64,000 nt of DNA from Escherichia phage ukendt, in the sequence record NC_052661.1, one strand, 5' to 3'. Below are positions 5,457 to 64,000 of the stretch, one piece after another. Made by a program: the position numbers and the translations under genes. The notes beneath the pieces were generated by a model. The model was not told the DNA's origin. It was given only the letters and a program-made list of their open reading frames with translations, and searched no databases. Numbering within the stretch: position 1 is the stretch's first letter; every line of letters begins with the position of its first letter.

Positions 5457-5840
5457 ATGAGCAATATCATCAACCTGGCAGCGACTGTAAACGGTAAAGA
5501 CTTTAACGGCGCTGTAGACCGTGATCCTATGTGGTGCTTGTCAGTGTTTAAAGGTGACTTGGTTGAAGTTAGAACAACCGAAGGGTATAGCGATGATTAT
5601 AAATGCGAGATCCATTTACATAACTGGTACACGGGTAAAACTTATGCGCTGAATCATGCGTTTATCGGCAAGGTTGAATATAGAGAAATGATCGACGATG
5701 AAACGGGGCAGGATTTTAGCGAAAACGTTTATATTCGTTCCGAGACATTAGCCGAACGTTTGATCGAGAAAATGAAAGCAAAAAATAAAATTAATTTATC
5801 TCATTGGATTGATATAACAAACGATCCAGCTTATCAGTAA
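5457..5840 (+). CDS. hypothetical protein (127 aa)
   Basis: In-frame ATG after RBS aacgaggaatcacc; track ORF from 5382 would span the promoter. Confidence 0.55.
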   Translation: MSNIINLAATVNGKDFNGAVDRDPMWCLSVFKGDLVEVRTTEGYSDDYKCEIHLHNWYTGKTYALNHAFIGKVEYREMIDDETGQDFSENVYIRSETLAERLIEKMKAKNKINLSHWIDITNDPAYQ

Positions 5841-61255: not shown

Positions 61256-61504
61256 ATGTCTCTATTAGAAAAACACGTGTTTGAAGATGGTAACGGCAAT
61301 GCAGTTTTTCTTTTCCATCCAGAAAAATACACATCTGAAAACAATGGTACAACTTCTATTGTAATCACTAAAGATGTTAAAGTTATTGATTTCTTGGCTC
61401 TGATGCGAGAGATGGATCTTGAAATTAATACTTTTAACGCAGAAGCTTTGGTTGTTGCTCTTCTGGAAAAGAAAGATAGTGAAGAAGTAGCAGAATATGC
61501 TTAA
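61256..61504 (+). CDS. hypothetical protein (82 aa)
   Basis: In-frame ATG after RBS attaggaggaaca. Confidence 0.5.
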   Translation: MSLLEKHVFEDGNGNAVFLFHPEKYTSENNGTTSIVITKDVKVIDFLALMREMDLEINTFNAEALVVALLEKKDSEEVAEYA

Positions 61505-61512
61505 ATAACTAT

Positions 61513-61542
61513 TGACAAACGTATCCTTCATATGTTAGGATA
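61513..61542 (+). promoter_or_regulatory. promoter TTGACA with TG-n-TAGGAT, upstream of tRNA cluster
   Basis: -35 61513-61518; same TATGTTA(R)GAT architecture as 62100 and 63828. Confidence 0.5.
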
Positions 61543-61751
61543 CGTTCATCAAGTGTGGTAACAGGGTCGTTGACTTTTGTTAAGAGAGGCTTGCACTGCG
61601 GATAGTGTTAGAGACTACTTCTTCAGAGGTTAGCTACCAAAGAGGAAAAGGAATAGTCTCGGCTCAAGAACTTTTACGCTGAAAGTTGGGCTTGGTCTTA
61701 GAGAATGTAGCGGTTCTCTACAATCGTCAGCGTCTCTGTTACCACATTTAT

Positions 61752-61823
61752 GGCCCTGTAGCTCAATGGGAGAGCTGTCGGCTCATAACCGATAGGTAGC
61801 TGGATCGAAACCAGCCAGGGCCA
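61752..61823 (+). tRNA. tRNA, anticodon CAT (elongator Met or lysidine-modified Ile2)
   Basis: cloverleaf folded by eye; anticodon loop CUCAUAA; T-arm GCTGG-ATCGAAA-CCAGC; CCA encoded. Confidence 0.75.
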
Positions 61824-61828
61824 CCAAC

Positions 61829-61900
61829 GTCTTTATGGTGTAATGGATAGCACAGGAGTCTTCTAAACTCTTAGTCAAGGTTCGATTCCTTGTAAAGACA
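61829..61900 (+). tRNA. tRNA-Arg (anticodon TCT)
   Basis: acceptor GTCTTTA/TAAAGAC; loop CTTCTAA; T-loop TTCGATT. Confidence 0.75.
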
Positions 61901-62099
61901 CCAGAACATTTTAACATGAATTAGCTCAAGTGATTTGAACCCACTACTGATCATGGTGGCAGAGAATGAGGTAAGTATGTCAGACATTATAAACAAAGGC
62001 CACGGTTATATTAGAAGACATAAATGCTCGAAGAGCACCGTTCGCTGAGAACGGGGGTTGGTGGAGTCACCATTCATGGTAAAATGTTTTAAAAAACTA

Positions 62100-62128
62100 T
62101 TGACAACTAACACTATTTTATGTTAGAT
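62100..62128 (+). promoter_or_regulatory. promoter TTGACA-N17-TTAGAT inside tRNA cluster
   Basis: hexamers 62100-62105 and 62123-62128, immediately before tRNA-Ser. Confidence 0.5.
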
Positions 62129-62137
62129 TATAAGCAT

Positions 62138-62225
62138 GGAAGGGCAAATCGACGTGGCGACGAAAACGGTCTTGAAAACCGCCGAGCTTGAAAGAGCCTT
62201 GGGAGTTCGACTCTCCCTCCTTCCG
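62138..62225 (+). tRNA. tRNA-Ser (anticodon TGA), class II
   Basis: acceptor GGAAGGG, loop CUUGAAA, long variable arm, discriminator G, CCA encoded; D-arm irregular. Confidence 0.7.
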
Positions 62226-62232
62226 CCAGATT

Positions 62233-62315
62233 GGTAGATTGGTGAAATGGTAGCCACGACAGTTTGCTAAACTGTAGTCGGAAACGGCGTGTAGGTTCGA
62301 GTCCTACATCTACCG
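62233..62315 (+). tRNA. tRNA-Ser (anticodon GCT), class II
   Basis: stem ACAGT/ACTGT, loop TTGCTAA, long variable arm, discriminator G. Confidence 0.75.
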
Positions 62316-62448
62316 CCAAGTTCTTTTTAATGTAGCTTACTTTAGCAGAGTAAATCTTCGGCAAGTGGCGGTAACCACTTTACCGATACCTCATAGTTAG
62401 TGGTGTGAACACTGGCTATTTTAAAAAGAATTTAAATATTAGTATTTA

Positions 62449-62533
62449 GGTGAGTTAATTCCGTAGGGGTAGCGGGGCAGACTGTAAATCTGTTATCATT
62501 GCGATTCGGGTGGTTCGACTCCATCACTCACCA
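62449..62533 (+). tRNA. tRNA-Tyr (anticodon GTA), class II
   Basis: loop CTGTAAA, long variable arm, discriminator A; 5-nt spacer between acceptor and D-stem is atypical. Confidence 0.65.
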
Positions 62534-62542
62534 CCAAATTAA

Positions 62543-62625
62543 GATGAGTTGGCTGAATGGTTTAAGCGGCGGACTGTTAATCCGTGTTCGAAAGAACAAT
62601 ATAGGTTCGAATCCTATACTCATCG
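62543..62625 (+). tRNA. atypical tRNA: Ser-type class II body with anticodon GTT (Asn codons)
   Basis: acceptor GATGAGT/ACTCATC, 3-bp D-stem, stem GCGGA/TCCGT, loop CTGTTAA, 15-nt variable arm, discriminator G. Confidence 0.6.
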
Positions 62626-62635
62626 CCAGAATTAT

Positions 62636-62711
62636 GGACTTGTAGAGTTAAGGTAAACCCCCAGTCGCCAATAGGCTTCTGGAATTGCAGGTATCGAATC
62701 CTGCCGAGTCC
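62636..62711 (+). tRNA. tRNA-like element (acceptor and T-arm pair, anticodon arm not foldable); possible pseudo-tRNA
   Basis: GGACTTG/CGAGTCC acceptor pairing and GCAGG..CCTGC T-stem with 8-nt loop; no canonical anticodon stem found. Confidence 0.25.
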
Positions 62712-62718
62712 CAGCATT

Positions 62719-62790
62719 GCTCCTATAGTATAATGGCTATTACAACGGTTTTGTAATCCGTGGATCTCTGTTCGATTCAGTGTGGGAGCA
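62719..62790 (+). tRNA. tRNA-Thr (anticodon TGT)
   Basis: acceptor GCTCCTA/TGGGAGC, loop TTTGTAA, T-loop TTCGATT; a few stem mismatches. Confidence 0.65.
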
Positions 62791-63065
62791 CCAACACAAC
62801 ATTAAGAGCACTGTGATTGATCGTCGTATCCTGTGCACAAGGTCTGCTCGAAAGACAGTGTTCTTAGTATTGTGTTGATCACAAAAAGAGTCACCCGAAA
62901 CTTGACCGGAGTAGGGTTGGATGGGGCAAAATGAGAAGCGGCTCTCCCATCGACAGCAACGAAGAATAATATTTGACTTTGGTTTTGTATTATTTAAGTT
63001 AGCTTACCGAACGTAGGGCTAGTCACCCAACGGGATACTCGTCACTGTCCCAATCAATAAAAGTC

Positions 63066-63095
63066 TTGACAACAAATAGTAAAATGTAGTATAGT
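63066..63095 (+). promoter_or_regulatory. promoter TTGACA-N18-TATAGT before tRNA-Gly
   Basis: hexamers 63066-63071 and 63090-63095. Confidence 0.5.
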
Positions 63096-63106
63096 AAAGA
63101 TATAGG

Positions 63107-63177
63107 GCGTTCTTGGTGTAGCGGTAGCATTCCGTCCTTCCAAGTCGGCGGCACGAGTTCGATCCTCGTAGAACGCT
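63107..63177 (+). tRNA. tRNA-Gly (anticodon TCC)
   Basis: acceptor GCGTTCT/AGAACGC, loop CTTCCAA, T-arm ACGAG-TTCGATC-CTCGT, discriminator T; D-arm weak. Confidence 0.6.
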
Positions 63178-63277
63178 CCAAATTATTTAATAAAGGGTTG
63201 CCAGAAAACTTTCTCTTTTACTCATGGTTTTCTCCTTCTCTCACACTTCTTCTGGTTGCCCTTCATTAAATGATTTT

Positions 63278-63350
63278 TGGTTTGTAGTGTAGTCCGGTAG
63301 CACACGACACTTTGACTGTCGTAGGTTTGGTTCAAATCCAGACAGACCAG
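63278..63350 (+). tRNA. tRNA-Gln (anticodon TTG)
   Basis: U1-A72 start, stem CGACA/TGTCG, loop CTTTGAC, discriminator G, CCA encoded. Confidence 0.75.
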
Positions 63351-63358
63351 CCATATAA

Positions 63359-63432
63359 CGGAATTTAGCTCAGTTTGGTAGAGTGTACGCTTTGGGAGCG
63401 TATTGTCGCAGGTTCGAATCCTGCAATTCCGA
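63359..63432 (+). tRNA. tRNA-Pro (anticodon TGG)
   Basis: acceptor CGGAATT/AATTCCG, stem TACGC/GCGTA, loop TTTGGGA, T-arm GCAGG-TTCGAAT-CCTGC. Confidence 0.8.
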
Positions 63433-63441
63433 CCAATTAAA

Positions 63442-63512
63442 TGTTTCGTAGTTCAATGGTAGAACCCACGACTGATAATCGTGAGACACAAGTTCGATTC
63501 TTGTCGAAACAA
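63442..63512 (+). tRNA. tRNA-Ile (anticodon GAT)
   Basis: acceptor TGTTTCG/CGAAACA, D-stem GTTC/GAAC, stem CACGA/TCGTG, loop CTGATAA. Confidence 0.75.
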
Positions 63513-63517
63513 CCAGT

Positions 63518-63587
63518 TTCCCGTTAGACTTACAGGATAAGAGTTCCACAGCTTATTGTGATGCTGGTTCGAATCCAGCACGGGATA
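63518..63587 (+). tRNA. tRNA-like element with canonical T-arm but non-canonical anticodon arm; possible pseudo-tRNA
   Basis: T-arm GCTGG-TTCGAAT-CCAGC and acceptor pairing present; only a 5-bp stem with 4-nt loop (CACAG-CTTA-TTGTG) found. Confidence 0.3.
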
Positions 63588-63593
63588 CATAAT

Positions 63594-63669
63594 AGCGGGA
63601 TAGAGGAGTCTGGTCGTCCTCGCCAGTTTCATATGCTGGAGATCATTGGTTCAAATCCGATTCCCGCCT
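63594..63669 (+). tRNA. tRNA, anticodon CAT, initiator-like (1:72 mismatch, T-loop TTCAAAT)
   Basis: acceptor AGCGGGA/TCCCGCC with A1-C72 mismatch, D-stem GAGG/CCTC, stem CCAGT/GCTGG, loop TTCATAT. Confidence 0.6.
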
Positions 63670-63787
63670 CCAAATATCGCTTGCCAGCGGTATCTTTGAA
63701 GACCTTGCCTGGTTCCTTCTAAGATGGAGGGGTGCGACTCCTTAACGCACAATTATAATAAAGCATTTCAAATTAACAGTATTTATT

Positions 63788-63811
63788 AGCCTCCTTATTG
63801 GAGGCTTTTTG
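63788..63811 (+). terminator. rho-independent terminator AGCCTCC-TTATT-GGAGGCT-TTTT
   Basis: perfect 7-bp stem plus T-tract after tRNA cluster. Confidence 0.75.
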
Positions 63812-63827
63812 CTATCTATTGAATAAA

Positions 63828-63855
63828 ACTTGACTTATTATTTTTTATATGTTAA
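63828..63855 (+). promoter_or_regulatory. promoter TTGACT with TG-n-TAAGAT
   Basis: same architecture as 61513 and 62100; followed by RBS aggagg and ATG 63881. Confidence 0.5.
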
Positions 63856-63880
63856 GATAAAGTTTAGGAGGATTTTATTA

Positions 63881-64000
63881 TGCCTAAACTAAAACGTGGT
63901 CGTGGAAGACCAACAGCCGAAATGCAACAGATCTACGCAATGGATGCGGCGCAAGCAAGTGTAAAAGAATTATTTGCAGAGCATTATTTAGAAGCTATGC
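63881..64000 (+). CDS. hypothetical protein, 5' partial at window edge; N-terminal KRGRGRP AT-hook-like motif
   Basis: ATG after RBS aggaggatttt; ORF runs off the window. Confidence 0.5.

Follow-up and report, generated by a model that had tools for sequence, protein, structure and literature searches.

The DNA considered here is a stretch of 64,000 nucleotides from Escherichia phage ukendt (NC_052661.1; hereafter, the window), which carries on its plus strand an array of twelve transfer RNA (tRNA) genes (61752..63672; detected with ARAGORN and Rfam). The first and the last gene of this array, here called CAT1 and CAT2, both have the anticodon CAT; the complete order is Ile2(CAT), Arg(TCT), Ser(TGA), Ser(GCT), Tyr(GTA), Asn(GTT), Thr(TGT), Gly(TCC), Gln(TTG), Pro(TGG), Ile(GAT) and an initiator-like Met(CAT), and the identical order is annotated in the phages AV126, Mt1B1_P17 and ASO2A. 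Over 61500-64000 the identity is 98.8% with Escherichia phage AV126 and 98.0-98.7% with dozens of further Phapecoctavirus genomes, and the window is of the Phapecoctavirus type (Stephanstirmvirinae), that is, of the E. coli myoviruses of about 150 kb. An original prediction, made from the letters of the DNA alone, had regarded the two CAT genes as tRNAs of different type, the first resembling tRNA-Ile2 (lysidine), the last carrying features of an initiator tRNA. Both genes are real, being called by ARAGORN and matched by the Rfam tRNA model (gathering score 29) with 64.5 bits (E 6.5e-13) for CAT1 and 47.2 bits (E 3.7e-08) for CAT2; in both, the cloverleaf is the minimum-free-energy fold and the CCA end is encoded. 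A table of positions and comparisons within families likewise separate them into an Ile2 type and an initiator-like type, and it is rather probable that they do different jobs, CAT1 as a phage tRNA-Ile2 and CAT2 as a variant of the initiator-type methionine tRNA.

CAT1 (61752..61826, plus strand) has its anticodon in a standard loop of seven nucleotides, CTCATAA (U33, A37), and an acceptor stem GGCCCTG/CAGGGCC; the loop CUCAUAA and the acceptor start GGCCC stand in the sequence as the original prediction had read them. The stem places C4-G69 and C5-G68 at positions which in E. coli are positive determinants for TilS, while U4-A69 and A5-U68, the negative determinants found in elongator tRNA-Met, are absent, and the anticodon stem GTCGG/CCGAT yields G27·U43, a negative determinant for TmcA, the N4-acetylcytidine (ac4C) acetylase specific to elongator tRNA-Met (PMC2500205). 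With the E. coli elongator genes metT and metU, from which it differs in these determinants, CAT1 shares the D stem GCTC/GAGC. Class differences were counted position by position over 65 fixed cloverleaf positions; CAT1 differs from a prophage tRNA-Ile(CAT) at 10, from ileY and ileX at 13-15, from metT at 25 and from the initiators at 27-28, so that by the criterion of Silva et al. (2006) its sequence is nearer to Ile(CAU) than to Met or fMet. A search of E. coli gave 40 matching records, and among the matches listed 12 of 12 fall under tRNA-Ile genes; at the match in a prophage of strain STEC299 the tRNA-Ile stands after genes for an antiterminator and a DNA methyltransferase and before two tRNA-Arg genes. 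In the record of the near-identical phage ASO2A (MZ726793), for which the tRNAscan-SE web server was used (PMC10612097), the gene identical to CAT1 is labelled tRNA-Ile-CAT. For CAT1, therefore, a classifier does not return ordinary tRNA-Met, the outcome for both genes which the original prediction had named as speaking against it.

Together with the kinship to the tRNA-Ile of phage T4 described below, these features uphold the proposed resemblance, and CAT1 is, judged by its determinants and nearest relatives, of the tRNA-Ile2 (lysidine) type. With ileX, ileY, the ileZ gene of prophages and T4 tRNA-Ile it has in common the CAU anticodon in CUCAUAA, C4-G69, C5-G68, C29-G41, G30-C40, A73, the CCA end and an adjoining tRNA-Arg for AGA; G27·U43 is shared with ileX and ileY, whereas prophage ileZ, 85% identical to CAT1 over the fixed positions, has A27·C43 instead. 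Unlike the E. coli Ile2 types, CAT1 has a shorter D loop, A44 in place of U44 and the T loop ATCGAAA in place of TTCAAGT or TTCAAAT. This T loop is atypical (A54 and A60, where T54 is usual) and counts against the assignment. The same loop (T arm, 61798-61816) is kept in the homologous genes of phage phiWec179 and of Mosigvirus JS09; related CAT tRNAs of Stephanstirmvirinae have ATTGTAA or ATCGTAA.

CAT2 (63594..63672, plus strand) ends with its encoded CCA, position 63669, at which the original prediction had closed the gene, being the discriminator base. Its acceptor stem AGCGGGA/TCCCGCC contains an A1·C72 mismatch followed by G2-C71 and C3-G70; the D arm GAGG-AGTCTGGTCGT-CCTC gives A11-U24 and G12-C23; the anticodon arm CCAGT-TTCATAT-GCTGG gives A29-U41, G30-C40 and U31·G39; the variable loop is AGATC, the T loop TTCAAAT and the discriminator U73. 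The mismatch and the T loop, which had first suggested an initiator, are thus present as claimed. Among 1070 CAT tRNAs surveyed by Silva et al. (2006), A11-T24 and G12-C23 were complete discriminators of the formylmethionine initiator class, tRNA-fMet (PMC1635315), and what the formyltransferase mainly recognises is a mismatched 1:72 in combination with 2:71 and 3:70 (PMC5389676). CAT2 has no Watson-Crick pair at 1:72, has both G2-C71 and C3-G70 and both A11-U24 and G12-C23, as expected of an initiator; the elongator marks, a Watson-Crick 1:72 pair and pyrimidine11:purine24, are missing, and among the TmcA determinants (C27-G43, C30-G40, G44) only C27-G43 is found, 30:40 being G-C and position 44 being A. 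Over the 65 fixed positions it differs from tRNA-fMet at 20-21, from elongator Met at 34 and from Ile2 at 35. The best match in E. coli is metY, located between argG and rimP-nusA, and is weak (72.6% identity, E = 2).

Compared with E. coli tRNA-fMet (metZWV, metY), CAT2 shares the CAU anticodon, the unpaired 1:72, G2-C71, C3-G70, G4-C69, G5-C68, G6-C67, A11-U24, G12-C23, G26, G30-C40, the T loop TTCAAAT and the variable loop AGATC, the latter as in metY. It differs in having A1·C72 instead of C1·A72, U73 instead of A73, a D loop of 11 nucleotides, G13-C22, the anticodon stem CCAGT/GCTGG instead of TCGGG/CCCGA with its three G-C pairs, and the loop UUCAUAU instead of CUCAUAA. With elongator Met (metT, metU) it has CAU and C27-G43 in common, but lacks the 1:72 pair and G44 and carries a purine11:pyrimidine24 pair and G30-C40. 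CAT2 therefore keeps the acceptor-stem and D-stem features of tRNA-fMet on a rebuilt anticodon arm in which only G30-C40 is left of the three consecutive G-C pairs (29:41, 30:40 and 31:39; abbreviated 3GC). The initiator character first proposed stands in part: the two features named are joined by G2-C71, C3-G70, A11-U24, G12-C23, the variable loop of metY and, as shown below, a conserved mismatch, while the 3GC motif, already described as not obvious, is indeed absent and U73 is not canonical either. As the defining 3GC feature is missing, CAT2 is on present comparison best placed as an initiator-like variant and not as a member of the canonical tRNA-fMet class.

Several properties of CAT2 weigh against its being a working initiator. 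Of the three G-C pairs it has the middle one alone; U31·G39, a pyrimidine:purine combination, lies outside the natural au/GC/gu variants described so far; the discriminator is U73 and not the A73 of E. coli tRNA-fMet; and positions 32 and 38 are U32 and U38 rather than C32 and A38, which makes both the A37-(G29-C41) triple and the C32-A38 pair of E. coli tRNA-fMet impossible. C27-G43 is a feature of elongator Met, and an A·C apposition such as that at 1:72 can form a protonated wobble. Charging, formylation and efficiency in the P site could all be reduced by U73 and the altered anticodon arm. Public records label the gene either tRNA-Met-CAT (MZ726793, where Ile2 has been normalised to Ile and fMet perhaps to Met in the same way) or pseudo (MT496970). 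On the other side stands published work on initiators lacking 3GC. In E. coli, G30-C40 alone is essential and sufficient, a cg/GC/cg initiator sustains growth, and natural au/GC/gu initiators exist in some Mycoplasma and alpha-proteobacteria (PMC5389676); further, 3GC-mutant initiators work when they are overexpressed or when the host has little tRNA-fMet (PMC3017606). These observations make an initiator route for CAT2 plausible. With the natural initiators of Mycoplasma and alpha-proteobacteria and the mutants of the Varshney laboratory CAT2 shares an A-U pair, G30-C40 and a G/U wobble as third pair; unlike au/GC/gu it has U31·G39 and not G31·U39, which breaks the run of three purines on the 5′ strand, and it is a phage gene, known here from its sequence, while the au/GC/gu initiators are cellular.

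How this unusual combination is maintained can be judged from close relatives. Sharing the anticodon loop of CAT2, 12 different sequences make up its sub-family; they come from Stephanstirmvirinae and from closely related metagenomic DNA. Their first base is A, C or U and base 72 is C or U, the apposition being A·C in seven, C·C in two, U·C in two and C·U in one, and never Watson-Crick or G·U. The T stem occurs in five fully paired forms (ATCGG/CCGAT, ATTGG/CCAAT, GTAGG/CCTAC, GCAGG/CCTGC and GTCGG/CCGAC), between which the ATTGG/CCGAT of the window is a U·G intermediate, and the upper anticodon stem covaries as well (CCAGT/GCTGG, TGAGT/GCTCA, TAAGT/GCTTG), while A29-U41, G30-C40, U31·G39 and the anticodon loop are fixed. 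Between Phapecoctavirus and Justusliebigvirus the D arm and the anticodon arm are identical and the T stem has undergone compensatory double substitutions. Since 1:72 is always unpaired although its bases change, while the stems covary, the pattern shows selection for an unpaired 1:72 in this sub-family.

Two other viral loci carry CAT tRNAs which resemble CAT2 in parts. The 21-mer comprising the T arm and the 3′ acceptor strand of CAT2 is found in two contigs of IMG/VR. A viral contig of 104.8 kb (L010; IMG/VR UViG_3300025924_000018) has at 5647-5721 a mosaic CAT tRNA with the T arm and 3′ acceptor strand of CAT2 and A1·C72, combined with an anticodon stem that has all three G-C pairs (CCGGG/CCCGG), a D stem of the ordinary kind with C11-G24, A73 and no encoded CCA. 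Erwinia phage phiEa104 (Ounavirinae) has three CAT tRNAs (L015, 1501-1575, 1755-1828 and 2558-2631), one of which is 77% identical to CAT2, begins with AGCGGGA and has A11-T24 and the stem CCAGT/TCTGG, but has a paired A1-U72; its loop TTCATTA puts a T at position 37, where a pyrimidine is very unusual in tRNAs.

A wider family was collected with a 20-mer of the CAT2 D arm (GAGGAGTYTGGTCGTCCTCG) as search key, by which the D arm is invariant through selection of the sample and the collection is no unbiased census; the identity of this arm across the family follows from the key and is to be discounted as support for an initiator. The key occurs in 44 viral contigs of IMG/VR and 93 metagenome contigs, and in only 10 contigs among 185,579 species genomes of bacteria and archaea. 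As the same type is also carried by hundreds of phages in GenBank, the expectation that a phage tRNA of initiator type would be unusual did not hold. Phages, according to a recent survey, generally avoid encoding tRNA-fMet (PMC10264068). In the literature consulted, the CAT2 type was not found described as initiator-like, and phage tRNA-fMet comes up in few papers, only in passing. A few tRNAs whose anticodon is not CAT (TGG, Pro-type; GTC, Asp-type; for example at the loci L023, L065, L066, L131, L157 and L162) have the same 20-nt D arm, which means that the arm is not strictly tied to CAT tRNAs.

Parsing of the hits left 50 distinct CAT tRNAs of 76 nt, which align without gaps. In this alignment 95.5% of the cells are paired and double-sided changes occupy 201 cells, compared to 49.5 in shuffled alignments, and none of 500 shuffles reached the observed values for pairing and covariation. 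Only 1:72 departs systematically from pairing, being unpaired in 42 of the 50 members, while the other 20 cloverleaf pairs are each paired in at least 94%. The pairs next to the mismatch are nearly constant (2:71 is G-C in 46 and 3:70 is C-G in 46), as is 30:40 (G-C in 45), with more freedom on either side of the latter: 29:41 is A-U in 28, G-C in 14 and U-A in 8, and 31:39 is U·G in 27, G-C in 13 and something else in the rest. Position 73 is A in 32, U in 14 and C in 4 members, and the canonical loop, CTCATAA with A38, is found in 26. Built from the family, a covariance model gives metY 80.5, metZWV 77.1, metT/U 48.2, ileX/Y 28.2 and CAT1 26.4 bits, by which the initiators of E. coli exceed elongator Met by about 30 bits. 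Family members occur in arrays of up to 36 tRNAs, and at 45 of 125 loci stand beside one or two other CAT tRNAs (ARAGORN); most of those listed have the elongator layout, a few being mis-called long-arm tRNAs or further initiator-like copies. The marks proposed for the lineage are a D arm of the form GAGG-AGUYUGGUCGU-CCUC, a mismatch of any kind at 1:72 and G30-C40 as the one G-C pair left of three. Whether these genes form a widespread and for the most part virus-borne lineage of functional initiator tRNAs, which would supply phages during infection and whose UUCAUAU sub-family would escape VapC-like nucleases, is a tentative extension which we regard as possible, though on the doubtful side.

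Other readings of CAT2 have to be set against the initiator-type one. Most GenBank records, one of them based on tRNAscan-SE, call the gene tRNA-Met, it has C27-G43 and no 3GC, and ARAGORN finds no CAT tRNA in the window besides CAT1 and CAT2 that could serve as elongator tRNA-Met; all this would suit an elongator of initiator descent which has lost its initiator function and decodes internal AUG codons. Such a tRNA would hardly be expected to avoid a Watson-Crick 1:72 pair in all 12 sub-family variants while both bases change, or to retain purine11:pyrimidine24 with G12-C23, a combination unseen in the Met or Ile(CAT) classes (PMC1635315). The count over fixed positions (34 differences from E. 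coli Met versus 20 from fMet), the missing TmcA determinants C30-G40 and G44 and the family model, which rates elongator Met about 30 bits under the initiators, point the same way and, AUG not being a rare codon, an additional elongator supply would seem to bring no obvious benefit. We therefore consider an elongator unlikely. That CAT2 is a decaying pseudo-tRNA without function, as annotated in phage Mt1B1_P17 (tRNA-Pseudo-CAT in MT496970), is very improbable: its Rfam score is the lowest among the ten genes called by ARAGORN at default settings, its folding z-score is only -1.5 and degenerate tRNA-like remnants do exist in the array, but the score is well above the gathering score, the minimum-free-energy structure is the cloverleaf, CCA is encoded, the D and anticodon arms are identical across Phapecoctavirus and Justusliebigvirus with compensatory double substitutions in the T stem, and the covariation throughout the family is beyond the reach of all 500 shuffles.

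The anticodon loop brings in a different possibility, namely that CAT2 mainly acts as a decoy or as a nuclease-resistant spare against defence systems attacking tRNA-fMet, such as PIN nucleases of the VapC type, and would be of value only in hosts carrying such systems. The enteric VapC cleaves tRNA-fMet between A38 and C39 (PMC4105405), where U38 and G39 stand in CAT2; the loop remains TTCATAT in relatives with a covarying upper stem; and changes in the anticodon loops of phage tRNAs have been proposed to be a means of nuclease evasion (PMC10264068). It is thus conceivable, though speculative, that U38 and G39 in the rebuilt arm make CAT2 resistant to enteric nucleases of this type. However, with the canonical CTCATAA and A38 in 26 of 50 members the loop change is not family-wide, and evasion of VapC could apply only to the sub-family. 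As the main role of CAT2 we deem this quite improbable; it overlaps with the initiator-type reading and does not exclude it.

CAT1 is more easily placed. At 2 nt downstream of it lies the gene for tRNA-Arg(UCU) (61829..61903, plus strand; ARAGORN; Rfam 66.3 bits), and the Ile(CAT)-Arg adjacency recurs in an E. coli prophage and in Mosigvirus JS09. The two genes form a pair for the rare codons AUA and AGA, which the open reading frames of the window (38.8% GC) use at 8.5 and 6.5 per 1000, respectively. These frequencies are about two to three times those of E. coli and fit a role in codon supply; a tRNA-Ile2 together with a tRNA-Arg(UCU) for AUA and AGA is a classic arrangement in phages and prophages. 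C34 of CAT1 would be converted to lysidine by the TilS of the host, and the modified tRNA would then be charged by IleRS and decode AUA, while the adjoining tRNA-Arg(UCU) would serve AGA. The first 18 nt of CAT1 are the first 18 nt of T4 tRNA-Ile, which also has a CAT anticodon and is given as isoleucyl-tRNA in RefSeq, and the CAT tRNA of JS09, a T-even Mosigvirus (L170, 1501-1575), with a tRNA-Arg(TCT) directly next to it, is 96-97% identical to CAT1; one of the three differences is compensatory (G30-C40 to A-U), as is the change of G49-C65 to A-U in the relative from phiWec179. This suggests that a single gene of the Ile2 type may have been transferred horizontally between phages of the Stephanstirmvirinae and Straboviridae. 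The tRNA-Arg genes adjoining CAT1 and its JS09 homolog are unrelated in sequence. A scan with a pattern specific to CAT1 found one IMG/VR contig, the other relatives coming from GenBank phages. By these resemblances CAT1 is to be seen as a mobile phage gene which T-even phages also have and as resembling the ileZ-arg cluster of lambdoid prophages; being of the same kind as T4 tRNA-Ile and prophage ileZ, it is routine and adds nothing new.

As for the remainder of the array, seven of the eight T4 tRNAs have counterparts by anticodon (Arg-UCU, Ile-CAU, Thr-UGU, Ser-UGA, Pro-UGG, Gly-UCC and Gln-UUG), the eighth, Leu-UAA, being additionally present in phage phi92; Ser-GCU, Tyr, Asn, Ile-GAU and the initiator-like Met go beyond the T4 set. 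ARAGORN calls ten of the twelve genes at default settings and two more at -ps90, namely tRNA-Ser(TGA) (62139-62228, plus strand), which is matched in Rfam only via the tRNA-Sec model (37.4 bits), and tRNA-Tyr(GTA) (62449-62536, plus strand; Rfam tRNA 39 bits); in relatives both are labelled tRNA or pseudo-tRNA. Between intact tRNAs lie two degenerate tRNA-like elements (62636-62712 and 63511-63588, plus strand) with a good T arm and acceptor stem and a defective D arm or anticodon arm, which ARAGORN at -ps80 labels "Leu(caa)" and a tRNA with a four-base anticodon. In phi92 a tRNA-Leu(TAG) directly precedes the CAT2 ortholog, at the place of the element at 63511-63588, which by this position may be a decayed tRNA copy. 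A reading of CAT2 with G-1 and an acceptor of 8 bp, in the style of tRNA-His or tRNA-Sec, was rejected: bases -1 and 73 are both T, and the frame is set by the encoded CCA. A protein-coding reading of the array was dismissed likewise, all open reading frames inside having at most 78 aa and overlapping or lying between the tRNA genes, and weak Rfam matches in the region (RyhB with 29 bits, YrlA, sX4 and families of plastid untranslated regions) were discarded as chance because they are far under their gathering scores and overlap tRNAs or a terminator hairpin.

A consensus scan on the plus strand gave a promoter-like site upstream of CAT1 and tRNA-Arg (TTGACA, 18 nt, TG-extended TAGGAT; 61512..61541) and another with 11 of 12 matches (TTGACA, 18 nt, TATAGT; 63066..63095), which precedes the block Gly-Gln-Pro-Ile-CAT2, with CAT2 as the last gene behind it. 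Both are given as putative only, since promoter consensus matches in the scan are not above chance (6 found, 6.1 in shuffled sequence). A terminator-like hairpin, AGCCTCC-TTATT-GGAGGCT followed by a run of T, lies about 115 nt past CAT2 (63788..63816, plus strand); its equivalent is annotated as rho-independent terminator in MZ726793, and it likely marks the end of the tRNA transcription unit. A promoter-like motif, (A)AACT(A)TTGAC(A/T), 17-18 nt and a TG-extended -10 such as TGTTAGGAT, TGTTAGATT or TGTTAAGAT, occurs four times on the plus strand (61505-61545, 62093-62133, 63060-63099 and 63825-63862); it appears to divide the array into three putative transcription units and may drive the next open reading frame.

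The initiator-type reading of CAT2, the one we favor, implies a route which can be outlined from what is known of the enzymes concerned. The gene would be transcribed from the promoter-like site at 63066, and MetRS would charge the product via its CAU anticodon; the formyltransferase Fmt could formylate the methionylated tRNA, recognising the mismatched 1:72 together with G2-C71 and C3-G70; its formyl group and its unpaired 1:72 would hold it away from EF-Tu; and entry into the P site would proceed through G30-C40, so that CAT2 might supply initiator tRNA during infection or top up that of the host. That CAT2 functions as an initiator is thereby deduced from its sequence and that of its relatives.

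Regardless of how CAT2 is used by the phage, the comparison uncovers a blind spot of annotation, in that the acceptor and D-stem signature of initiators is present in genes which hundreds of phage genomes list as tRNA-Met or pseudo. The family can also be read as a natural mutagenesis series, in which the variation (any mismatch at 1:72, G30-C40 kept, the flanking pairs free) agrees with the work in E. coli, and by which the minimal definition of a bacterial initiator tRNA becomes testable with natural sequences. Should the rebuilt anticodon arm protect from toxins targeting the initiator, the idea that phage tRNAs act in counter-defence would be extended to the initiation of translation.

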